Shown in pieces: positions 1-40,254 of a stretch of DNA of 40,254 nt (the stretch's first letter is position 1; each line of letters starts with the position of its first letter). A model generated the notes under the pieces. The model worked only from the letters and a program-made list of their open reading frames with translations. It searched no databases and was not told where the DNA came from. The stretch spans positions 1 through 40,254 of the IMG/VR virus record IMGVR_UViG_3300027819_000027. One strand, given 5' to 3'. Position numbers and translations under genes: made by a program. This stretch comes from a virus (taxonomy: Duplodnaviria; Caudoviricetes).

Positions 1-99
1 TCAATTTTCAGCATCTCGTTTCTCCAAGTTGTTGCATAACCCGGCAGTCCACCTGACCTGCCGCGATAAGGCCGCGTCAGTCAGGTGACTTTTGCGTTA
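1..99 (+). repeat. Exact direct repeat of 39742-39840 (contig-end overlap)
   Basis: 99 identical bases; identity stops immediately after the attC core GTTA. Confidence 0.97.
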
Positions 100-102
100 T
101 GC
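34..102 (+). repeat. attC-like recombination site (copy of site A, short allele)
   Basis: GCATAAC...CACCTGAC...GTCAGGTG...GTTATGC, 69-bp imperfect inverted repeat bounded by AAC and GTT cores. Confidence 0.88.
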
Positions 103-5112: not shown

Positions 5113-5744
5113 CAGAAGGGCACCTCGGAGTCGTCTGGATTATTTGCCAGCGAATCGGGGAATTGTTCCTGCGCCGGCGGCACGATCCCCTCGGCCGCTT
5201 TCATTTCTGCTGATTCAGAAATGATCTTCGCAATCCACTTTGGCGTTGTTTCGGGTGGCGCCCCCTGGTCCAGAGTGTAAACTATTAAAGGGTTCTCCGC
5301 TGCGAGTTTATTGATTCCTTTATATAGCGGCAAAATCGCAGAGATGTTGGCATATGTTTTGTCGCCATTTACTTTGTGGAGAACTTGCAGCATACAATTC
5401 AAACCGACGAGCTTGGAAATATCAAATCCAGAGAGTTCTTCCTGGGTGAAAGCTCTGCCACGCCAGGTCTCTAAATCTTTCCGAAGATTTGCTTTTTCCC
5501 CCAGGCTAAGGGTGTATTGTTTACTGATCGCCCTAGGTAGGGTCAATGTTTGCCCATCTTTTACGATCTCAATGCGCCTGTCGGGGAGTTCCCAGATAAT
5601 GACGCACTTCCGTGAGGACTTGTCGTAAACAGGGCTATATTGTGTGCCTAAGTCATAAATCGCATAACAAATAGCCTGATGTACTCCGGCATCAACCGGC
5701 TCAATTGCCTCCCCACCCTCTTTCGCTATCAAAGAACCAATCAT
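5112..5744 (-). CDS. Putative single-stranded DNA-binding protein
   Basis: YDLGTQ...YTLSLGEKANLRKDLETWRG core with acidic DDSEVPF C-terminus; next to exonuclease. Confidence 0.75.
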   Translation of the reverse strand: MIGSLIAKEGGEAIEPVDAGVHQAICYAIYDLGTQYSPVYDKSSRKCVIIWELPDRRIEIVKDGQTLTLPRAISKQYTLSLGEKANLRKDLETWRGRAFTQEELSGFDISKLVGLNCMLQVLHKVNGDKTYANISAILPLYKGINKLAAENPLIVYTLDQGAPPETTPKWIAKIISESAEMKAAEGIVPPAQEQFPDSLANNPDDSEVPF

Positions 5745-6245: not shown

Positions 6246-6452
6246 TTAAATGAGGTCAGATATTTCTATCTGATATTTTGCCACAATCTTTTTTAGGTCG
6301 TTAATGTCCCACGTGTCTGCCTTTAACCAGTTGCGTATTGTCTCGTCTGATACACCAAGCAACCCGGCCAGATCAACATCACTAACCTTACGTAATGCCT
6401 TAAATGCCTTGATTTTCTCAGAAGTATTAAGGCCCTCAAATAATCCGCTCAT
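6246..6452 (-). CDS. Cro/XRE-type helix-turn-helix regulator, 68 aa
   Basis: DVDLAGLLGVSDETIRNW HTH; AAGGAG RBS; first gene after divergent promoter. Confidence 0.82.
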   Translation of the reverse strand: MSGLFEGLNTSEKIKAFKALRKVSDVDLAGLLGVSDETIRNWLKADTWDINDLKKIVAKYQIEISDLI

Positions 6453-6872: not shown

Positions 6873-7036
6873 GCCAGCAATCTGAGTGGGAAAATCTAAA
6901 AGAGCGGGAGAATCAGGCATCGATTGACCGCCAGTTCTATGACGAAGAAGAACCATACTGGCCAGATAACGAACTGCCGGGCATGTGGGAGAACGCTGAC
7001 TTTATGGGTGGGGCTGTTTCCGCTCGCCTCGATTGA
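6869..7036 (+). CDS. Acidic hypothetical protein, 55 aa; its C-terminus is encoded by the terminal attC
   Basis: ATGA overlap with upstream gene; MSQQSEWENLKE...SARLD. Confidence 0.55.
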   Translation: MSQQSEWENLKERENQASIDRQFYDEEEPYWPDNELPGMWENADFMGGAVSARLD

Positions 7037-7046
7037 CTGGTTAGAT
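6988..7046 (-). repeat. attC-like site z (last in array, degenerate)
   Basis: GGAGAAC...GTTAGAT; stem relies on G-T pairs on the + strand. Confidence 0.6.
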
Positions 7047-7059
7047 GGAGTAATTAAAA

Positions 7060-7245
7060 ATGCAAAGAATACTTGTGCCATTATACACACTAATATTTTG
7101 GAATAGATTGTTAAATGGAGATAAATCACCATACCGCCGATCCTCTATTATTAAGGTGAAAGGCTGGCGCACAATATTGGTTGGCAGTCCATTTGCGAGA
7201 GAAACAATAACACCACTGTTCAAATTATGGAAGTGGTACATCTAA
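7060..7245 (+). CDS. Cassette-borne hypothetical protein, 61 aa
   Basis: GGAG RBS; flanked by GTTAGAT/ATCTAAC; stop in core. Confidence 0.65.
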   Translation: MQRILVPLYTLIFWNRLLNGDKSPYRRSSIIKVKGWRTILVGSPFARETITPLFKLWKWYI

Positions 7246-7300
7246 CGCTAAAGGTCAGCGGCAGGCGCTTTTGCCTGTCCGCTGTAGTGACTGGTTATGG
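7240..7300 (-). repeat. attC-like site a
   Basis: ATCTAAC...CAGCGGCAGGC...GCCTGTCCGCTG...GTTATGG. Confidence 0.88.
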
Positions 7301-7366
7301 AGGTAACGCTCAAGCTAAGCGGCGTGGCGGTCGTTTGCCACGTCCGTCTTGAGCGCTTTGTTAGCA
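7301..7366 (-). repeat. attC-like site b (abuts site a)
   Basis: AGGTAAC...CGGCGTGGC...GCCACGTCCG...GTTAGCA. Confidence 0.85.
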
Positions 7367-7383
7367 GGTTTTATAGGAGGAAT

Positions 7384-7866
7384 ATGATACCGACAGAGAC
7401 ATGGGTTTTACCAAGGCCGCGTAAGAACAGATACCCAGGAGGATTTCCACTTCACTTTGAAAAGAAATTATGGAAACTTCTCGGCTGCCCCACAATGGTG
7501 TTGCATCCCTTTGGAGGAGCGGCGGAGATAGGAGACAGGGTAGATATAAACCCAGAAACGAATCCCAAGTGGATCGGAGACGCACACAAACTTGATATGA
7601 TCCCAGACCAAAGTTATGACCTTGTAATTCTCGATCCACCCTATGACAATGAACAGGCTGCCAAACTATATAAAACACCAAAGTTGCATTATGGGAAATA
7701 TGTATCTGAGGCGATGAGAGTTTGTAAGATTGGAGGCAAGGTTGCCATATATCATTGGGTATGGACTCCGAGACCGAAGAATGGAAAGTATTGTAACCGT
7801 ATCGTAATCTTGACAAGGGTATGGCACAGACCAAGGGTTTGTAATGTTTATTTACGTGAAAGCTAA
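7384..7866 (+). CDS. Cassette-borne small amino-(N6A/N4C) DNA methyltransferase-like protein
   Basis: LHPFGG motif I, DLVILDPPY motif IV; AGGAGG RBS before ATG 7384; stop in AGCTAAC core. Confidence 0.78.
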   Translation: MIPTETWVLPRPRKNRYPGGFPLHFEKKLWKLLGCPTMVLHPFGGAAEIGDRVDINPETNPKWIGDAHKLDMIPDQSYDLVILDPPYDNEQAAKLYKTPKLHYGKYVSEAMRVCKIGGKVAIYHWVWTPRPKNGKYCNRIVILTRVWHRPRVCNVYLRES

Positions 7867-7947
7867 CGTAGAGATAACCCGCCGGCCACCGACCAGGCGG
7901 TAAAGTGACAGGCGTGGTTCCGGTCGGGGTTGATTGATTTGTTATAC
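7861..7947 (-). repeat. attC-like site c
   Basis: AGCTAAC...AACCCGCCGG...CCGGTCGGGGTT...GTTATAC. Confidence 0.82.
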
Positions 7948-7973
7948 GGATTATTAGGACATGAAGGAGAAAG

Positions 7974-8129
7974 ATGCCTGACCAGCAACCCCACTGTGTA
8001 GGGGATATATACGGCCAATGTTGTACCGCTATGGTGGCGGAAGTCGGAAAGACGCTGACATTGGTGGGTCTCGATACCCTTAAAATCATGCACGGATGTC
8101 CTTTTTATTTATTGTTGTATAACGCTTGA
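7974..8129 (+). CDS. Cassette-borne Cys-containing peptide, 51 aa (MPDQQPHCVG...)
   Basis: AAGGAG RBS; read manually; cassette bounded by GTTATAC/GTATAAC. Confidence 0.55.
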   Translation: MPDQQPHCVGDIYGQCCTAMVAEVGKTLTLVGLDTLKIMHGCPFYLLLYNA

Positions 8130-8194
8130 CTTGAGCGGCGGGGGTTTTATCCCGTCCGCGCGTAGCGAGGATCGGCTGGAATGACTGGTTGGGC
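8117..8194 (-). repeat. attC-like site d (apparently chimeric)
   Basis: GTATAAC...GTTGGGC; the two arms resemble different attC types and pair poorly. Confidence 0.65.
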
Positions 8195-8208
8195 GTAACT
8201 TTTGGAGG

Positions 8209-8286
8209 AAACATTCAGCCGCCCGGCCACTGATTATGCTATTTGCACAGAGCGTGTTCCGGGTCGGCTGGATTAACAGGTTATAT
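8209..8286 (-). repeat. Truncated attC-like site e
   Basis: TCAGCCGCCCGG...CCGGGTCGGCTGGA...GTTATAT stem intact; left core and spacer shortened. Confidence 0.65.
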
Positions 8287-8307
8287 TTAATATTTAAGGA
8301 GTTTACA

Positions 8308-8463
8308 ATGGCTAAAATATTCGACATAGTGATCTGCCCCGTTTGCAAAGGTGAAAAATTAGTTGATAGTGGCCAGGTAATGAAAGATGCAAAAATCTAT
8401 ATTACTAAAAAGCAATGCCCAAAATGCAAGGGGCACGGAAGAGTCGGAGTAGAGCGAATATAA
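8308..8463 (+). CDS. Cassette-borne DnaJ-type zinc-finger peptide
   Basis: CPVCKG and CPKCKGHG; AAGGAG RBS; stop in ATATAAC core. Confidence 0.72.
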   Translation: MAKIFDIVICPVCKGEKLVDSGQVMKDAKIYITKKQCPKCKGHGRVGVERI

Positions 8464-8525
8464 CGTTTGAATTCAGCGGCTACGCGCGTTTCTTGCGCGG
8501 AGTCCGCTGGAATGATGGGTTGGCC
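8458..8525 (-). repeat. attC-like site f
   Basis: ATATAAC...TTCAGCGGCT...AGTCCGCTGGAA...GTTGGCC. Confidence 0.9.
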
Positions 8526-8568
8526 GGCACCGTGCCGCCAGCACCGACTTTTGAGACAGGAGATAGTG

Positions 8569-8772
8569 ATGACGATCAAATTCACCGAAGGCGAGATAAA
8601 GGCGCTCGAAGGCCACCCGGACGCACTGCGCGCACTGGCGGACTGGCACAGCGTGAAGGAAACGGAAGCCGACGCAATAGGCGGGCCGGAGATGGCGGAC
8701 TGCGTAAGCCACCATGCGGCGCGCTACGACGAACTGCGCGCAGAGGCCACCAAGATCGAGGCGGACTACTGA
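8569..8772 (+). CDS. Cassette-borne hypothetical protein (MTIKFTEGEIKALEGH...)
   Basis: AGGAG RBS; visibly GC-rich codon usage; bounded by GTTGGCC/GGCCAAC. Confidence 0.7.
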   Translation: MTIKFTEGEIKALEGHPDALRALADWHSVKETEADAIGGPEMADCVSHHAARYDELRAEATKIEADY

Positions 8773-8784
8773 CATGGTAGTGAC

Positions 8785-8841
8785 GGCCAACGACGAAATC
8801 AGCGGGGAGCGTAGCGAATCCGCTGTATTGATTTGTTATTT
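8785..8841 (-). repeat. attC-like site g (57 bp)
   Basis: GGCCAAC...CAGCGG...CCGCTG...GTTATTT. Confidence 0.88.
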
Positions 8842-8857
8842 TCGCCATGAGGAATAT

Positions 8858-9049
8858 ATGACAAATTACAAAATAACTCAATTAGTTAAAACTGCATACA
8901 AAAACAGATCAGAAATAATTTACGAAATTAGTAATGAGAGATATGCGCGTACTGAGTTTGAAAGATTAAAAAAAGATTTTCCCGCTGAGCACTTTGAATT
9001 GTTTAAAGCTGTGTACGATGAAGAGTGCTTAGACTGGACTGGAAAATAA
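8858..9049 (+). CDS. Cassette-borne hypothetical protein (MTNYKITQLVK...)
   Basis: GAGG RBS; AT-rich; stop in AAATAAC core. Confidence 0.7.
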   Translation: MTNYKITQLVKTAYKNRSEIIYEISNERYARTEFERLKKDFPAEHFELFKAVYDEECLDWTGK

Positions 9050-9132
9050 CGTCTGAATTGAGGCGAGCGGCGCAAAAGACTTGGTGAGGAAAGAAGCGGC
9101 TTTTACGCTTCGCCTCGAATGATTGGTTGGGC
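9044..9132 (-). repeat. attC-like site h
   Basis: AAATAAC...TTGAGGCGAGCG...CGCTTCGCCTCGAA...GTTGGGC. Confidence 0.88.
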
Positions 9133-9153
9133 GTTTGCCCGGAGAGGAACCGA

Positions 9154-9366
9154 ATGACAAAAGAACTACCCCCGCCAGTGACGCGGAAAAGCTCGAAAGA
9201 TGACCTTTGGGAAGAACTGGAGTGCGCCCGAGCCGAAATTGACCAACAGCAGCATGTGCTCAATGACTGGCGTGACCGTGTAGCGAAATCTGAGGCCGAA
9301 GTTGGTGGCCTGCGCTACCAGATCAGCGTGATTCGCGCTGTGCTGGCTGGGGATGTTCCACGGTGA
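9154..9366 (+). CDS. Cassette-borne coiled-coil hypothetical protein (MTKELPPPVTRK...)
   Basis: GAGG RBS; bounded by GTTGGGC/ACCCAAC. Confidence 0.7.
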   Translation: MTKELPPPVTRKSSKDDLWEELECARAEIDQQQHVLNDWRDRVAKSEAEVGGLRYQISVIRAVLAGDVPR

Positions 9367-9367
9367 C

Positions 9368-9407
9368 ACCCAACAGCGCAATAGATGGAATAATTCCACT
9401 TATTGAG
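9368..9407 (-). other. attI-like array-head site, copy 1
   Basis: CTCAATAAGTGGAATTATTCCATCTATTGCGCTG|TTGGGT on the minus strand; similar to 39476-39515 and 39932-39971. Confidence 0.65.
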
Positions 9408-23526: not shown

Positions 23527-24360
23527 TCATACTCCCTGTGGTTGCCAGATAGGACGTGTGCCTAGTTTATACTCTCTTGTGTAAATCTCCATTTTGGAAC
23601 TCCGTTCGTGATTCTTTTTTAAATCCTCCGTAACTGCAATCGTCGCCCAATCGTCGGGATATTGGATCATTGCCTCCAATAGTCCGTCTGAAAAGTTTAA
23701 CAATATTCCCGGATGGTTTCTTATCTCTTCTGAAAGGTATTGAGTTTGCAAAACCATAGAAGCATTGGTGATATAGTCAATGCCATTGGCTCTGACAATT
23801 ATCATGTTATCAAAAGCTACTTTCTGCTCGCCGGTTACATGGGTGAAGTTAAGGAATGACCCCTCACAGCCAAAATACGCAACCGTCCCATACCCCATTT
23901 TGACGAATAAGTTAGCCGCACGGCATACCGCAGTCGGCCCCCCGCCTATCCCATTCTCTTGGTCGCATTCAAACATATTGAAAACGCGGATTTGCTCTTT
24001 CTGAAACTGGTTGAACTGCCTGCGATGCACAAACGTCGCGAATACCGCCCCCTTTACCAAATCACCAGTCTTAAACTCGCGGCGGCTGGCGTCTATTGCG
24101 TACATATAGCAAGGGATCCCATTATCGGATAAATAACCGGCGGTATCATTAACGGCATAAATATCGCCTGGCCATTTTCGGAGAATATCTAATCTCAGGG
24201 GAAGTCCGGGGCCGCCACCACAAACCGCCACAGGAGGTAGAATTTCTTCACTCCATCGGACTTTTGGATATTTCTGCGCCTTCCGGTGGTTTATAGCCAG
24301 TTGCTCAATATCGGTGTTGCACTGAGCAACCATGTTTATTCTATACGGGGTCATGCACAC
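23527..24360 (-). CDS. Maf/DUF115(MptE-like)-family transferase-like protein
   Basis: VAVCGGGPGL...IYAVN...GGGPTA...MGY...YFGCEGS pattern. Confidence 0.6.
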   Translation of the reverse strand: MCMTPYRINMVAQCNTDIEQLAINHRKAQKYPKVRWSEEILPPVAVCGGGPGLPLRLDILRKWPGDIYAVNDTAGYLSDNGIPCYMYAIDASRREFKTGDLVKGAVFATFVHRRQFNQFQKEQIRVFNMFECDQENGIGGGPTAVCRAANLFVKMGYGTVAYFGCEGSFLNFTHVTGEQKVAFDNMIIVRANGIDYITNASMVLQTQYLSEEIRNHPGILLNFSDGLLEAMIQYPDDWATIAVTEDLKKNHERSSKMEIYTREYKLGTRPIWQPQGV

Positions 24361-25889
24361 ACCGTCCTATTGACCATGCCACGCGCGACGTTGCGCCGAT
24401 TCTCTATGGCTGGCCGTTTCTTACCGGCAATAAAACTGCCGATACTCTTTTCAAGATTTGGGAAAACCTGATAGATCGCTTTCGATAACCTGCATGTGTT
24501 GATAATCGCTTTCTGCTTCAAGCCCTGGCCGGGATACATCGTTTCCAGATTGTGCCTGCCGATCTCATAAGAAACCTCAGACATCTTGGCAACAAACTCA
24601 GGGCTATACTTGAAAAAGAACTCCTCCTGAATATAGGTGTCATCGTACATATATCTTTGAGAAAGGGTGCTGACAGCGTAGGGATTCTCTGCATTCTGGT
24701 AGAGAGAGACGCCGCAGTCCTGATACCTGGGATTCAGCCAGTAATCCTTGAAACCTCCCTGAAGGACATACTGCTGATAAATCTCCGTCCCAGGGAAGGG
24801 AACAATCGAACCGGAACCGTTAAACATATGGGTCACATCCCAAAGCTCATATATCATGTTTAACGTGTTCTGAAGGCTCTCCACCGTCTCCCAGGGGAAC
24901 CCGAACATCAGGTTCACCCCAACTTGCAAACCGGCTGCGTGGGCTGTCTTACAAGCCGAGATGTTCTTTTCTACCGTCGTTCCCTTGCAGGTTCTTTTTA
25001 GAGTTTCGGGATCGCCGCTTTCAATGCCAAATATGACCATATAGCAACCGGCATCTTTCATCATCGAAGCCATTTCCTTTGTCATCATGTCGGCGCGTGT
25101 CCATGCCTGCCAGGTAACTTTCGGGGTAATTTTCTTTATCCCGTCGCAGAACTCGGCAACGTGCCTCTTGTTCATCGTGAAACAGTCGTCGGCTACAACG
25201 AACTGACGCACGCCGTAATTATCAACACGGTTTTGAATGTCTGCCATTACCTGGGGGATGGGGTTAAACGTCGTCTTTTGGCCATAGACCTGATAATCAC
25301 AGAAGGTACACTTTCCGGGGCAACCTCTACTTGTATAAATCCGGTGGATTCCCTTCAATAGTCCGTCGCCTTCAAGCCGGAACCGCTCAATATCAAACGG
25401 GCTGAAATCAGGATCGGGCAAAGTTGAAAGGTCTTTTATCCGAGGACGCGGTTCATTCCGCACGATATTCCCATCAGTTCCACGATAGGTAATGCCGAGA
25501 ATGTCCTTAAGGTCTTTGCCTTGAAGGTATTCCCTTAATGTTTCTTCGCCTTCATTTCTGACGACAATATCAACGCCATGTTCGATCGCTTCTCGATCGC
25601 AGGTCGTAACGTGCGTTCCTCCGGCGATGACAAGAATCCCCTCTTTCTTCAGTCGCTTTACAAGGTCGTAAACCTTTAATATCTGCATGGTGAGCATGGA
25701 GATACCAACGATGTCCGGTTGATATTCTCGCGCTACTTCCATGAAGTAGTCATTGCTCAGTGGCTGCTTGAACGTGCTTTCTTCGATCCTGACTTCATAG
25801 CCGTTTTCTTTGAATATCGCCGCTATCATAGCAAGCGAATGGGGCATCTCAGACATCGAACTCGGATAGAGAAGAAGTGCCTTACGCAT
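24351..25889 (-). CDS. Cobalamin-binding radical SAM protein (class B methyltransferase-like)
   Basis: PHSLAMIAA...PDIVGIS...IAGGTH B12 domain; TSRGCPGKCTFC; FGIESG; MFGFPWET. Confidence 0.92.
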   Translation of the reverse strand: MRKALLLYPSSMSEMPHSLAMIAAIFKENGYEVRIEESTFKQPLSNDYFMEVAREYQPDIVGISMLTMQILKVYDLVKRLKKEGILVIAGGTHVTTCDREAIEHGVDIVVRNEGEETLREYLQGKDLKDILGITYRGTDGNIVRNEPRPRIKDLSTLPDPDFSPFDIERFRLEGDGLLKGIHRIYTSRGCPGKCTFCDYQVYGQKTTFNPIPQVMADIQNRVDNYGVRQFVVADDCFTMNKRHVAEFCDGIKKITPKVTWQAWTRADMMTKEMASMMKDAGCYMVIFGIESGDPETLKRTCKGTTVEKNISACKTAHAAGLQVGVNLMFGFPWETVESLQNTLNMIYELWDVTHMFNGSGSIVPFPGTEIYQQYVLQGGFKDYWLNPRYQDCGVSLYQNAENPYAVSTLSQRYMYDDTYIQEEFFFKYSPEFVAKMSEVSYEIGRHNLETMYPGQGLKQKAIINTCRLSKAIYQVFPNLEKSIGSFIAGKKRPAIENRRNVARGMVNRTVCA

Positions 25890-26790
25890 GAATCTCCTCC
25901 TGATTTGAAGTGATTTGACCTACTTTGCGGGTAGGGTTGTTGGCGTAAAGCAATACTTCAGGGTTGTAGTTCGTCTGGTCACAATGTCGGCAGATGTAGT
26001 CGTTAAACATTCCGGTTTGGTGCGCCAGCCGAAGCGCCTTGTAAGCCGCCCCCTTGTAAACCTCTTCAATGGTCTGGTGGTTCAGGTCGCCCAGGACAAT
26101 CTGACGGTGAATGTCCCAACAGCAGGGGCTTACCTGTCCGCTGGCATGGACATACATCGGCCCGTTTTCTGGTCTGCCGCAGGTTGTCTGCCTTGTGCTG
26201 TCAATTTTTCGGTAATCCCTTCCCTGTACCCAATTATGAGGCTCCCAAACGAAAACCTCATCAAGTTTTGGCTCCCACATTTCTATCCAATCATTCTTTT
26301 CATGCTTGTTTAAATCAGTCTGGACGAAAAGACCGATAGTGTAGGGATGCCCATTCTTGTACTGCAAGAATCCAAGGATGTTTTTCATTGAGTCAAAGTG
26401 CTTGACTTTGCCCCGGTGAAAAGCTTCATAGGTTTTCTGAGTATGCCCGTAAATGCTTAACTTTAAAATATCAATGTACTTTATGACGTTGGCCCACTTG
26501 TCAGGCGTCATGTGAAAGGCTGTAGTCGAGACGAATATCTTCGCCTTTGGCAACTTCTCCCGGATAAAAGCAAACCGGTCAAAGAGGTTCTTGTCAAGAA
26601 AGCACTCACCAAAACCGCAGGTGTCCACGGATTCCAATTCATACTGAGCAGCGTCGTCAATAATCTTCTTGAACAAGCCCATGTCCATCGCCTGTAACTT
26701 CTGTGTGAATTTCTCACGGGGGCAGATAACACAATGAGCATCACATATGTTGGTGGTTTCTATAATGATCTGTTTATTCCGTAACTCCAT
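25882..26790 (-). CDS. Radical SAM protein with SPASM/twitch domain
   Basis: ETTNICDAHCVIC; GFGE; CGRP...GQVSPCCWD...CRHC. Confidence 0.92.
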   Translation of the reverse strand: MELRNKQIIIETTNICDAHCVICPREKFTQKLQAMDMGLFKKIIDDAAQYELESVDTCGFGECFLDKNLFDRFAFIREKLPKAKIFVSTTAFHMTPDKWANVIKYIDILKLSIYGHTQKTYEAFHRGKVKHFDSMKNILGFLQYKNGHPYTIGLFVQTDLNKHEKNDWIEMWEPKLDEVFVWEPHNWVQGRDYRKIDSTRQTTCGRPENGPMYVHASGQVSPCCWDIHRQIVLGDLNHQTIEEVYKGAAYKALRLAHQTGMFNDYICRHCDQTNYNPEVLLYANNPTRKVGQITSNQEEIHA

Positions 26791-28432: not shown

Positions 28433-30517
28433 TTAAGCAGCCGACGAAATCCTGCAAGCCCAACCCGGATAGATGGTCTTCTGGCCAAACAGAACGTCGA
28501 TACGGCAGGGGAAACGATCATTGACAATATCAAAGTTTCTGACCACCCGGAGCGAGATGCCGTCAAAAACCTCCCTGGCCGCAAAATCTACACCCTTCGG
28601 CAATTCAAGATCGGCGCTGACAAAGGTAAACGCATCTTTGTGAAAGACCAAGTTCTGCCGGAACGCGGTATTTGATGTGCCGACGCCACCCGATGTAAGG
28701 AAAACGACCGTTGCCGTCGTGGAGCTGGTGCTGACAACGCAGTTTTGCTTGGCGCCGGACTTGTAGGGAGTGGGGCTGACAGCTACTGTCCACGTTGAAG
28801 CAGCGGTTGCTACCTGGGCAGCCGTGATTGACCACTGCTTTAGATTGCCCATAGTGACTTTGGTTTCCGGGTTCACATCATAGACACCAGCAATGGTGAA
28901 GATGTCGCCGGCAGACTTCGTGTCGCTTGCGGTTACTGCTGACAGAACGATAGTCGCTGTGCCATTAGTAATAGACCCGGTATCGGTCGTTTCACCAGTA
29001 GTAATAACGCCGACAGTATGAACCGGCGTCATTTCGGATTCGTAGAACTTGAACCCATAGACCTGGCCCAAAAGCCCGGTGTCGTACTGCTTGGAAATCT
29101 CCGCGGCTGGGTTGAAGATGTTATAGCCTGCCGTAATGATGCTGTTTGCGGCCAGCGCATCAACCATTGCCATCCGGTCAGAAGCCGGAGCCAAGTTCTG
29201 CGAAAGCTTGGCACGGGCGGCAAGCAGGACAGCCAACGTCGGGGCCGTGCTGTAATCGGTCGCGCTCGTGTGGACGTGGTTAGCAACATCTGGATAGCAA
29301 GCCGCAATAACGGTCTTGTCCACTTCAGCGGCCAGCCTTGACATTGCCGGGTTGAGTATCCGGTCTGCGAAATCATCCAGGGAAAGGGTAAGTTCCGCAG
29401 AACTGAAATTGATGTCAACGCCTCTCTGGGTCGCCAGCGTCAAGGTCTGTGTCGTTTCCGTCACATCCTGGGTATCCATGATGGCTCCACTACGGACAGT
29501 GAACTGATTCGGCTCCCGAATAAGCAAGGTTCCGCCGTTCTTGGCGCCTGACCTTGCGAACCGGTCATCATACTGTTTGTTAATCATCTTGGTGAAGACA
29601 AGATTATTGTGCAAACCTTTATATTCAAATGAGTTCGTTACTCTCACCCCGCCTTTCGGCTGCTGCATATTTCTATGCAGAGTAGACTATATCACCACCC
29701 ACGAGGGGTGCGCTGCGCTTCGAGTCACTTGACTCTACTCCCATGACGGGATAGTCGTTACAGGTTACACTATGAGGGCAAACTCCGTTGTTTTTAACCT
29801 TACCCCATTGGCAGTTCCAACAAAGAACTTGAAACCCCTCTGGAAAGTTATTTTTAATTAACCATCTATAAAATCTGGTGCCGCCAGTTTTTATTCCTGT
29901 TGATCTTCTGTGTTCAGCACCATCATTATTTATATGGTCGATAGTTAAAAACATCTCTTCTGCCTCTCCACAACAAGCACACTGGTATCCATAAGCATCG
30001 TAAACAGCGTCTTTAAGTTTTTTATTCGCAATTCTGACTTTTTTAGCCATCTTAGCGTTAAACTCAACACGCTCATTCTCACTCATGGAATCTATTTTGT
30101 CATGCCAACGATTCTTCATCTTTTCCCTGTATCTGTTCCCTTCTTTGGCACGCCATTCCCTGTTGTAGATATTGTAGCAAGACCTACATCTAAACTGCAT
30201 GGATAATTTACCATTGCTTTTTATCCGATATGGCAAGTAATCGCTTAATGGTTTGGTTATCCCGCATTTAGTGCATTCCCTCACAGTGTCTTCCTTCGGT
30301 ATTACCATATAGATACATCTCCTTGCAGTGATTAGTTATTGTGTAAGTATCACTTTTATGGTTATTATGCAAGAAGTTATTTATCATATCTACTTAGGCT
30401 TCCACCGAGTTCACAGCGTTCTTCGACATACATTGCTGTATGAAGCGACCTTTATTTGATCGCCAGGGCTTTCCTGGTGATATCGCCTGAGCTTAAAGTT
30501 TTTATGGTATTAGCCAT
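28433..30517 (-). CDS. Major capsid protein (P22 coat family), spliced: exon 1 30459-30517, exon 2 28433-29615, 413 aa
   Basis: AGGAGG RBS; joined frame MANTIKTLSSGDITRKALA-I-LHNNLVFTK; NLVFHKDAF, CRIDVLFG. Confidence 0.9.
29616..30458 (-). mobile_element. Group I self-splicing intron (843 nt) in the capsid gene
   Basis: P1 GCGAU/GUCGC with U-G at the 5' splice site; P3 GCUGUG/CGCAGC; P7 GACUA/UAGUC; terminal G; P10 CAAA/UUUG; removal restores the frame. Confidence 0.9.
29673..30308 (-). CDS. Intron-encoded HNH homing endonuclease
   Basis: CTKC...CRSC; CACC...LTIDHINNDG...QVLCWNC; AGGAG RBS. Confidence 0.88.
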   Translation of the reverse strand: MVIPKEDTVRECTKCGITKPLSDYLPYRIKSNGKLSMQFRCRSCYNIYNREWRAKEGNRYREKMKNRWHDKIDSMSENERVEFNAKMAKKVRIANKKLKDAVYDAYGYQCACCGEAEEMFLTIDHINNDGAEHRRSTGIKTGGTRFYRWLIKNNFPEGFQVLCWNCQWGKVKNNGVCPHSVTCNDYPVMGVESSDSKRSAPLVGGDIVYSA

Positions 30518-35657: not shown

Positions 35658-35990
35658 TTAGCAGCTCCTAAACGCTGGCGTCTTGTTCCCGTTTTTGGCA
35701 TGGATTAGGCGCGCTATGGCCTGGACCTGGGGTATTGTGATGTCTGGGCGGATAAATATGCCGTCGGGCGTCCAGGCTGTTATGCCTAGGTCTCGGCGCA
35801 TATCTAGATGGAGATCGGCGTCGAGGCGCACTAATCCAGTTGACTGGACTGGCACTCGGCAGGGTTGGCTGGGTGTTACATTTTGGGTGTTACATTTTGG
35901 GGGTGTTACAACTGATATTTGGCTGGGTGTTACATTTTGTCGGCGTGTCCGCTGATACTCTGCCATCTCTGTCGCGGTGCGCTGTTTCAT
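35658..35990 (-). CDS. Hypothetical protein with NVTP repeats
   Basis: AEYQRTRR start; first gene of the late operon. Confidence 0.55.
   Translation of the reverse strand: MKQRTATEMAEYQRTRRQNVTPSQISVVTPPKCNTQNVTPSQPCRVPVQSTGLVRLDADLHLDMRRDLGITAWTPDGIFIRPDITIPQVQAIARLIHAKNGNKTPAFRSC
35871..35939. repeat. Four GGGTGTTACA(TTTTG) direct repeats
   Basis: Copies at 35871, 35885, 35901 and 35925. Confidence 0.85.
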
Positions 35991-38034: not shown

Positions 38035-38053
38035 TAGCTGCCTTCTTGCGCTG

Positions 38054-38245
38054 TTATGTGGACAATACAGCATGATACGATTTATCCAGCAATGCCTTAA
38101 ATTCCTCAGCCGCTTCTTTGTCGAGCCAATGAAACAATCGTGGAGATTCAAAGTTGTGGTCTCCAACTGGCCGGACTGCCCACATCCCATAAAAGGATTC
38201 GTCGCAAAAAACCTCCCATTTAACCCGTATTTTTGTATCTCTCAC
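38054..38245 (-). CDS. Cassette-borne hypothetical protein
   Basis: GGAGG then GTG; stop in GTTATGT core. Confidence 0.6.
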   Translation of the reverse strand: MRDTKIRVKWEVFCDESFYGMWAVRPVGDHNFESPRLFHWLDKEAAEEFKALLDKSYHAVLST

Positions 38246-38252
38246 AATACCT

Positions 38253-38313
38253 CCATAATCAATCACTACAGCGGACGTCTAGGAGTGCCTGCCACCGCCC
38301 CTTGGCGTTATCT
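38253..38313 (+). repeat. Degenerate attC-like site
   Basis: CCATAAT CAATCACTACAGCGGAC...GGCGTTATCT; 5' arm nearly matches the minus strand of site a. Confidence 0.6.
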
Positions 38314-39459: not shown

Positions 39460-39475
39460 TTTACCCCCTTGTTGC

Positions 39476-39515
39476 CTCAATAGGCGGAATAGTTCCGCTT
39501 ATTGCGCTGTTATGC
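39476..39515 (+). other. attI-like array-head site, copy 2
   Basis: CTCAATAGGCGGAATAGTTCCGCTTATTGCGCTG|TTATGC. Confidence 0.65.
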
Positions 39516-39755
39516 ATCAACAACACCGGTGTCCATCCGGTCATCGGCTGAAAAATGCCGCCGGTTATAGTTGCCACCGAGCGCCGATGAAAGCGCCTTT
39601 CCTTTTTCGTCATCGAACAGCTTCACAACCATGCCGTCAGGCCAAATCTGTGCGCCAATCGCTAAAACTTTCCCCGCCTTGTTTGCGTCGCGCACGGCCT
39701 GAAAAAGCGGCTCCAGCAGGGTTATTTGTTCTTCCGTCAGTTCAATTTTCAGCAT
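39510..39755 (-). CDS. Cassette A hypothetical protein, 81 aa
   Basis: GGAG RBS; bounded by GTTATGC/GCATAAC; stop in core. Confidence 0.72.
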   Translation of the reverse strand: MLKIELTEEQITLLEPLFQAVRDANKAGKVLAIGAQIWPDGMVVKLFDDEKGKALSSALGGNYNRRHFSADDRMDTGVVDA

Positions 39756-39774
39756 CTCGTTTCTCCAAGTTGTT

Positions 39775-39843
39775 GCATAACCCGGCAGTCCACCTGACCT
39801 GCCGCGATAAGGCCGCGTCAGTCAGGTGACTTTTGCGTTAGGC
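39775..39843 (+). repeat. attC-like site A (long allele)
   Basis: GCATAAC...GTTAGGC. Confidence 0.9.
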
Positions 39844-39931
39844 ACAGCCCAGTACCAAATGTCGTCGCGCAACTTGACACCCTCGGCAAACGGGTGTGAC
39901 CTTTTTCTTTTCCACTTTACCCCCTTAATAT

Positions 39932-39971
39932 ATCAATAGGCGGAACTATTCCGCTTATTGCGCTGTTATCT
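39932..39971 (+). other. attI-like array-head site, copy 3
   Basis: ATCAATAGGCGGAACTATTCCGCTTATTGCGCTG|TTATCT. Confidence 0.65.
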
Positions 39972-40151
39972 TTTAGATATTTCCTTTATTTCTTGCTCGA
40001 TAATTTTTTTACTATTTCTTCGCCGGGTAACACGAGAGAAAAACTTAGCTATTTTTCTGATCCCGATTATTTCCCACGGACTCCGGCCAGCTTTATGTCC
40101 CTGCTCCGTTTTTCGGGCATAATAATTAGCATAATAATTATTGTAACTCAC
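39966..40151 (-). CDS. Cassette B basic hypothetical protein
   Basis: GTG at 40151; AT-rich; bounded by GTTATCT/ATATAAC; stop in core. Confidence 0.55.
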   Translation of the reverse strand: MSYNNYYANYYARKTEQGHKAGRSPWEIIGIRKIAKFFSRVTRRRNSKKIIEQEIKEISKR

Positions 40152-40171
40152 GTGATCAACCCCAATTAAAA

Positions 40172-40230
40172 ATATAACCAGTTCACTCCAGCCGACCGCA
40201 GAATCGCGGCGGCTGACCTTTGCGTTATGC
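40172..40230 (+). repeat. attC-like site B
   Basis: ATATAAC...CAGCCGACCGC...GCGGCGGCTG...GTTATGC. Confidence 0.88.
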
Positions 40231-40254
40231 TCGATGTAGAGCACTCCGGCTGAT

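Follow-up and report, generated by a model that had tools for sequence, protein, structure and literature searches.

Inverted cassette arrays headed by shortened attI-like sites in a podophage genome with no detectable integron integrase

The IMG/VR record IMGVR_UViG_3300027819_000027 (Caudoviricetes; 40,254 nt, referred to below in its entirety as the window) represents a P22-like podophage in which we recognized two arrays of putative gene cassettes. Each appears to be built as a shortened copy of a bacterial attI site followed by attC-bounded cassettes, with the genes running opposite to the integron convention and with no integrase gene (Table 1). By definition the array is a CALIN (a cluster of attC sites without intI) and not a complete integron, and it would work like an integron missing only intI. 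Judging from the sequence comparisons described below, the cassettes of both arrays are probably inserted and excised in trans by an IntI of the host, likely that of a Desulfobacterota integron.

attC sites, cassette boundaries and gene polarity

The main array contains nine hairpin-type elements of 57-89 bp each, spanning 6987-9132. A first-pass annotation of the same DNA had read them as attC-like and alternating with single small open reading frames (ORFs). They were assessed with a covariance model (CM), as that annotation had suggested, trained on 24 attC sites from outside the window (23 bacterial and one from the integron of Shewanella phage M16-3); the named attC structure covaries in the training alignment (74 two-sided changes vs. 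27.6 in shuffles). Over 40 kb the model gave 12 matches at E≤5, all within two loci, and in the main array it matched b, c, d, e, g, h and i at full length (28-52 bits) and f partially, with no match for a; it also recovers all three attC sites of phage TJE1. Six sites also emerged from a simpler, structure-based scan of the window, for which 20 shuffles gave a mean of 0.1. The R''/R' boxes (RYYYAAC ... GTTRRRY), with spacers of 5 and 5-6 nt to the L boxes, are present in these seven sites and in X and Y of the second array, a and f failing this test of architecture. The extrahelical bases, which determine the recombinogenic strand of an attC, were read on the minus strand: C occupies the first bulge position in 7 of 9 sites, and A the second, likewise in 7 of 9. 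All nine elements of the annotation are thus present, the tally being seven full-length sites (e apparently chimeric), one damaged (f) and one half site (a). The strict alternation with ORFs does not hold, the b-c and e-f intervals being geneless remnants of 9 and 20 bp. As judged with our own model, the window has the at least two attC sites within a few kb, without intI, that define a CALIN. Site c showed a summed contig depth of 315 in run X1 (vs. ~40 for the phage) with other flanks, and similar attC sites are therefore abundant in the same sample.

The cassette boundaries carry the strongest regularity. As in integron cassettes, the R' heptamer at each cassette start is complementary to the R'' of that cassette's own attC. 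The seven pairs quoted in the first-pass annotation (GTTAGAT/ATCTAAC, GTTAGCA/AGCTAAC, GTTATAC/GTATAAC, GTTATAT/ATATAAC, GTTGGCC/GGCCAAC, GTTATTT/AAATAAC and GTTGGGC/ACCCAAC) were found as given, five of them matching at 7/7 and two at 6/7. This offset pairing (7, 6, 7, 7, 7, 7, 6; 47/49) compares with a permutation mean of 33.9 and was reached by one of 5,040 orderings, which upholds the annotation's reading of an IntI footprint. Its further remark that the ends of one hairpin do not pair with each other also stands (3-5/7 matching in the seven sites tested).

It is highly improbable that the hairpins are simply RNA signals (RNase III sites or terminators) resembling attC by chance, although they do lie between early genes of one transcript and strong folding is seen for b, c and g (z −3.7 to −4.6). 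Sites d, e, h and i show no folding advantage over shuffled sequences (z −0.4 to −1.3) and yet keep the attC boxes and bulge positions; a stable stem, or a stem with a U-run, is not present at each junction (4 of 7 sites at chance level, folded as DNA). Moreover, terminator-like sites occur at chance frequency (4 vs. 4.2), and the sole Rfam match in the window at E≤1 (E 0.56) is irrelevant and falls outside both arrays. A secondary RNA role for the hairpins is possible.

All CM matches in the main array are on the minus strand, with the ORFs (bearing a ribosome-binding site and ATG) on the plus strand; in the second array the matches are on the plus strand only, and the genes are again opposite. 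By convention an integron ORF is on the attC top strand, whereas here the ORFs are on the bottom strand, a feature absent from the first-pass annotation. Bottom-strand coding is clear by coding score for 6 of the 7 main-array ORFs, the exception being the ambiguous a-b ORF (7060..7245), for which the score slightly prefers a minus-strand frame. The distance from the R'' end to the start codon is 20-50 nt, and four of the seven ORFs end with a TAA stop that falls within the reversed R' box. The strand call itself was checked on fetched genome loci with an IntI match, where attC is opposite to intI in 11 of 13 (some overlapping).

This polarity was commoner in the viral than in the bacterial loci surveyed. 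In a survey with one attC pattern, covering viral contigs (21 loci) and genomes (the first 80 of 130 loci with full flanks), locus majorities were 9 inverted, 0 canonical and 4 unclear for viruses vs. 2 inverted, 32 canonical and 10 unclear for bacteria (Fisher p 1e-7, the loci being not fully independent). A less stringent pattern, evaluated on 122 of about 410 viral stretches, returned 21 inverted, 6 canonical and 14 unclear. The calls are those of a stricter caller, which leaves 17/38, 39/86 and 75/141 unclear after removal of the cassettes with heptamers below 6/7 (3, 16 and 16). A first caller had scored 21 of 141 classified bacterial cassettes as inverted; these proved on inspection to be mostly antisense miscalls, and the stricter caller gave 4. 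None of the first 21 viral records had an IntI above the profile cut-off, and 8 of them matched a terminase profile. One inverted bacterial locus (L182 2780-6179, genome G030), with six attC sites and a methyltransferase, is prophage-like, since it is placed between Erf/Gam and lysis genes; the same genome encodes a separate IntI integron elsewhere. At another locus (L145 6639-14163) nine attC matches, opposite to the genes, surround a homolog of window gene 5115-5744.

The cargo is phage-type. Cassette GC spans 0.32-0.63 vs. 0.48, which suggests different donors. Homologs of the methyltransferase without attC flanks were seen in three viral cases.

Shortened attI-like sites and their bacterial counterparts

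The window carries three copies of a 19-base attI motif (at 9372, 39493 and 39949; 0.10 expected), within sites j, Z1 and Z2, and j and Z1 are located at the top-strand start of their arrays. Of the parts of a complete integron, an attI at the array start is therefore present by both sequence and position, and the intI gene is absent from the window. The first-pass annotation had included 9368-9407 in its array; this element is attI-like and not an attC. Broken attC sites were considered as a source of j, Z1 and Z2 and rejected: none of 108 distinct contexts of the motif is an intact attC by scan, and the motif adjoins intI.

The bacterial form of the site precedes full IntI genes in genomes G501 (420 bits) and G818 (440 bits; cut-off 265) as well as intI fragments in G501 and G460, at a distance of ~0.2-0.4 kb and in divergent orientation. 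The phage copies equal the bacterial site minus 35 nt, the alignment gap being a clean 35 columns. The first bacterial cassette is complementary to the attI site at 7/7 in G501 and G837. Genome G501 has several attI copies and at least 4 IntI matches over the cut-off. With one mismatch allowed, the motif was matched by 4 of 401 genomes from the phylum to which G028 (Desulfuromusa kysingii, Desulfobacterota) belongs, two of them by chance, with 3 control matches. Eleven bacterial contexts behind the motif comprise 8 canonical genes, 1 inverted, 1 unclear and 1 too near the contig end.

In viral contexts, an inverted gene ends at the short site in 10 of 15. The short site is complementary at 7/7 to the next attC in 11 of 18 other viral or metagenome loci, two of which seem to be one sequence; only the 23 loci with the Z motif and a CM match entered this last count, and the 65 sources surveyed had been chosen by eye. 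A third to half of the metagenome matches to the 19-mer look like chance matches in genes. No IntI lies beside the motif in loci L317-L454, the lone tyrosine recombinase match among them (L358) reading like a phage integrase. Long attI-type regions with repeated boxes were noted in L376 (4001) and L344 (483), with no intI within the fetched flanks. In a scan for Pc-type promoters, a weak minus-strand match near the main array (9534-9507, antisense to the genes) was among 9 found vs. 4.7 expected.

An attI site is reported to be recognized only by its cognate integrase (PMC2095811), and the phage attI would therefore point to a Desulfobacterota host, an assignment that we infer from the likeness of the sites. 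Portal homologs were found in 4 of the 301 genomes from the order of G501, and at 28-43% identity they are too remote to settle the host assignment.

Allelic variation and the possible movement of cassettes

The second array, at the contig ends, has its gene on the minus strand, and Z1, cassette X and attC X all read along the plus strand. It exists as two alleles, and both the array and the allele pair are absent from the first-pass annotation. Bases 1-99 repeat 39742-39840, and 91-126 repeat 40219-40254; the alleles differ by 387 bp between the R' boxes of X and Y, the crossover lying within 9 bp common to X and Y that include G/TT. The long allele is carried continuously by record G001 (identical to window 10994-40254). 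Such a difference is what attC × attC excision leaves; slippage would look alike. The borrowing of a host IntI, suggested earlier in the first-pass annotation, is supported by this R'-box allele pair together with the attI motif beside intI in Desulfobacterota. A decayed third unit ends in a degenerate attC (W, 38253-38313) with only a weak CM match (10.7 bits, E 1.3).

Several observations weigh against cassettes moved by a host integrase. Arrays occur sporadically, one of 71 related viral loci having one, and an exact variant of the motif was matched by no more than 5 of the 301 genomes searched in G501's order (0 control matches). Site g is also 82-84% like proteobacterial attC, so attC does not single out one host. 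Inverted polarity is not universal, the arrays of TJE1 and G004 being canonical; the latter is a complete relative (60% capsid identity) with a small-gene array at L311 5741-7142, and both polarities therefore exist among related phages. The short allele is seen solely in the first 126 bases of the window, and, with the crossover in 9 shared bp, an identical join could result from slippage or from annealing by the phage. Finally, several sites are damaged (a, e, f), the 35-nt deletion may weaken attI, and no skipped cassettes of the main array were found in contigs of the likely source. Groundwater metagenome runs contain nearly all words of the genome and may be its source; in the likely source run the contigs are continuous across the main array at ~40x, although contigs drop rare variants. 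Two joints of run X5 (6880-7874 and 7346-7864) were not counted as skips, their sides being 27 and 26 letters at 85% likeness. Nor were relatives with different main-array content found, the comparison proposed in the first-pass annotation having been made with 5 records, of which only G001 matched, without that region.

The damaged sites, the 35-nt deletion and the lack of skipped cassettes, together with the degenerate W and the empty b-c and e-f intervals, would also suit fossil arrays, built by IntI earlier or copied from a host integron and now immobile; illegitimate recombination has indeed been suggested as a capture route (Qi et al. 2023, PMC9892861). We consider this unlikely. A copied host array would not be inverted, since bacterial cassettes behind attI are canonical in the contexts counted above; five of the seven heptamer pairs have stayed perfect, there are two alleles, and the short attI recurs before inverted genes in the viral contexts.

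PeSL elements of T4-like phages are proposed to act by homologous exchange. A like movement of integron-derived cassettes, by phage exonuclease and annealing between similar site ends, would fit the allele crossover in 9 bp of identity, the seemingly chimeric e, the 69-bp repeat that contains Z1 and Z2, and the exonuclease and NinG encoded by the phage. On the other hand, homology exchange would not yield an offset heptamer complementarity for each cassette, and an attI is not needed for it, which makes this route rather improbable.

Returning to a host IntI acting in trans, we propose that during infection it would insert circular cassettes at G/TT of the phage attI or of an attC. New genes would arrive beside attI, at the end of the rightward early transcript farthest from its promoter, and would be read by phage transcription proceeding towards attI. 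Old cassettes would decay at the far end; sites a, b-c, e and f, at that end, are damaged, and g, h and i beside attI are intact. With the polarity reversed, any host cassettes that enter, anti-phage genes included, would lie antisense to phage transcription and stay silent, which could allow one enzyme to serve two gene pools. Alternatively, the genes may run with the fork, placing the attC bottom strand on the lagging template, which is reported to favour folding and excision (PMC5371416). Both the silencing and the replication accounts are offered as ideas.

Table 1. Predicted features of the two arrays (positions in the window; slashes mark cut points)
Feature	Position	Strand	Basis
Site a, attC half site, only R''/L'' arm intact	6987..7046	-	arm pattern; no CM match
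Cassette ORF, 61 aa, no family, weak strand call	7060..7245	+	heptamers 7/7; TAA stop inside R' of b
attC b	7240..7300	-	CM 39.3 bits
attC c, directly after b, empty remnant between	7301..7366	-	CM 37.7 bits
Cassette ORF, 160 aa, predicted DNA methyltransferase	7384..7866	+	phrog_3816 E 6.8e-15; 384 homologs; heptamers 6/7
attC d	7861..7947	-	CM 31.8 bits
Cassette ORF, 51 aa, no family	7974..8129	+	heptamers 7/7
attC e, arms apparently from two different sites	8117..8194	-	CM 35.4 bits; two hairpins in fold
Site f, damaged attC without L'-R' spacer	8206..8286	-	partial CM match, model 13-53, 16.3 bits
Cassette ORF, 51 aa, CxxC zinc-ribbon-like	8308..8463	+	PF00684 E 8e-6, under Pfam cut-off; heptamers 7/7
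attC g	8458..8525	-	CM 51.7 bits
Cassette ORF, 67 aa, no family, cassette GC 0.63	8569..8772	+	heptamers 7/7; no relative in viral contigs
attC h	8785..8841	-	CM 28.1 bits
Cassette ORF, 63 aa, cassette GC 0.32	8858..9049	+	6 database matches including itself, others 50-77% identical; heptamers 7/7
attC i	9044..9132	-	CM 46.7 bits
Cassette ORF, 70 aa, adjoins attI	9154..9366	+	heptamers 6/7
Site j, shortened attI, predicted cut G/TT at 9374/9373	9368..9407	-	alignment with bacterial attI, 35-nt internal deletion
Decayed third unit	38044..38313	+	attI-like stub near 38055; 70-aa ORF on minus strand; degenerate attC W
Z1, second shortened attI, opens second array	39467..39515	+	alignment with bacterial attI; motif
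Cassette X ORF, 81 aa, inverted	39510..39755	-	cassette start and R'' of X 7/7 complementary
attC X, long allele	39775..39843	+	CM 44.1 bits
387-bp segment, long allele only: gene remnant, attI copy Z2, cassette Y	39838..40224	+	allele comparison
Z2, third shortened attI	39923..39971	+	alignment with bacterial attI; motif
attC Y	40172..40230	+	CM 28.9 bits; heptamers 6/7 with Z2 junction
attC X, short allele, joined straight to sequence downstream of Y in long allele	34..102	+	CM 42.4 bits

Genome setting, precedents and significance

The genome encodes terminase, portal, major head protein, Ad3/Hc3 connectors, DNA ejection protein, holin and endolysin, as well as a helicase and a primase. It closes as a circle at 39,741 bp because of the terminal repeat (bases 1-99), with a CheckV completeness of 100. 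A six-frame search of the window with profiles for tyrosine recombinase (PF00589), IntI (TIGR02249, the search that the first-pass annotation had called for) and resolvase (PF00239) gave no match, and none of the 63 window ORFs matched an integrase PHROG. The earlier observation that an apparently complete genome lacks a tyrosine recombinase is thereby borne out. A blastn comparison with cultured phages returned a single 51-bp match, outside the cassettes; GC skew tracks the coding strand and gives no origin position. No RNA dataset is among the listed holders of the genome, which has no bearing on expression.

Other features of this genome include a 22-bp near-palindromic motif in four copies (3439, 5762, 35831 and 37156; 77-91% alike), possibly an operator for the 68-aa helix-turn-helix protein at 6249-6452, and short tandem repeats (35870-35957) within a small ORF that precedes the terminase small-subunit gene, possibly a packaging signal. 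Amid the virion genes, 23530-26790 holds a B12-binding radical SAM gene, a radical SAM/SPASM gene and a weak MptE-like gene, possibly a modification pathway. Two endonuclease VII/HNH-like genes lie between primase and helicase (2252-2920) and between scaffold and capsid genes (29673-30308).

The first-pass annotation had noted that attC sites were already reported in phages, and an integrase-less phage attC cluster is indeed in print: Qi, Rajabal, Ghaly, Tetu and Gillings (2023, PMC9892861) describe phage CALINs with methyltransferase cassettes, in which IntI1 recombined 5 of 6 attC sites tested (two of the three TJE1 sites being assayed). In the accessible text of that paper, 2-4 sites are predicted in 14 supplementary phages (three in TJE1), and attI is mentioned only for a cryptic Shewanella prophage with a full integron. 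The present phage, in contrast, has two arrays and three shortened host-type attI sites with no integrase, and its cassettes are inverted, with an allele pair, whereas those of TJE1 are canonical in our analysis. With the sedentary chromosomal integrons of Desulfobacterota (G501, G818, G460, G837) it shares the attI core, a neighbouring inverted box and attC architecture; it differs in having no intI, an attI that lacks 35 nt as well as the further repeats, genes that face attI, and phage-type cargo. IntI can also place cassettes at distant sites in trans (SALINs/attG; Loot et al., bioRxiv 10.1101/2022.09.11.507474), although those insertions, as described there, use a short GWT consensus rather than a dedicated attI-derived site in three copies. 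The PeSL elements (PMC2839356, PMC4122927) are likewise small stem-loop elements bounding variable phage genes, but by title they are promoter-terminator motifs and not integron sites. Overall, phage CALINs, their methyltransferase cargo and IntI1 activity on phage attC are already known; inverted cassettes behind a host-type attI in an integrase-less phage were not found in the literature searched, from which most subscription journals and bioRxiv supplements were absent.

A wider picture, which we hold to be evenly balanced between right and wrong, is that of a mirror-image integron: phages would keep a minimal host attI and use the stress-induced host IntI to trade a reversed, phage-specific cassette pool (methyltransferases included), the reversal would silence host defence cassettes, and attI would name the host. 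The genome provides named substrates (j, Z1, g, i, X and Y) and matching integrases (G818 and G501) for a direct test, and the methyltransferase homologs without attC flanks bear on how genes become cassettes. Owing to the specificity of attI for its integrase, the attI of an uncultured phage could serve to predict its host. Integrons are known from bacteria and have been described as stores of anti-phage genes (bioRxiv 10.1101/2024.07.02.601686 and.601719); if our proposal is true, the same host defence engine would also serve counter-defence, and phage mosaicism would arise by site-specific recombination as well as by homologous and illegitimate recombination.

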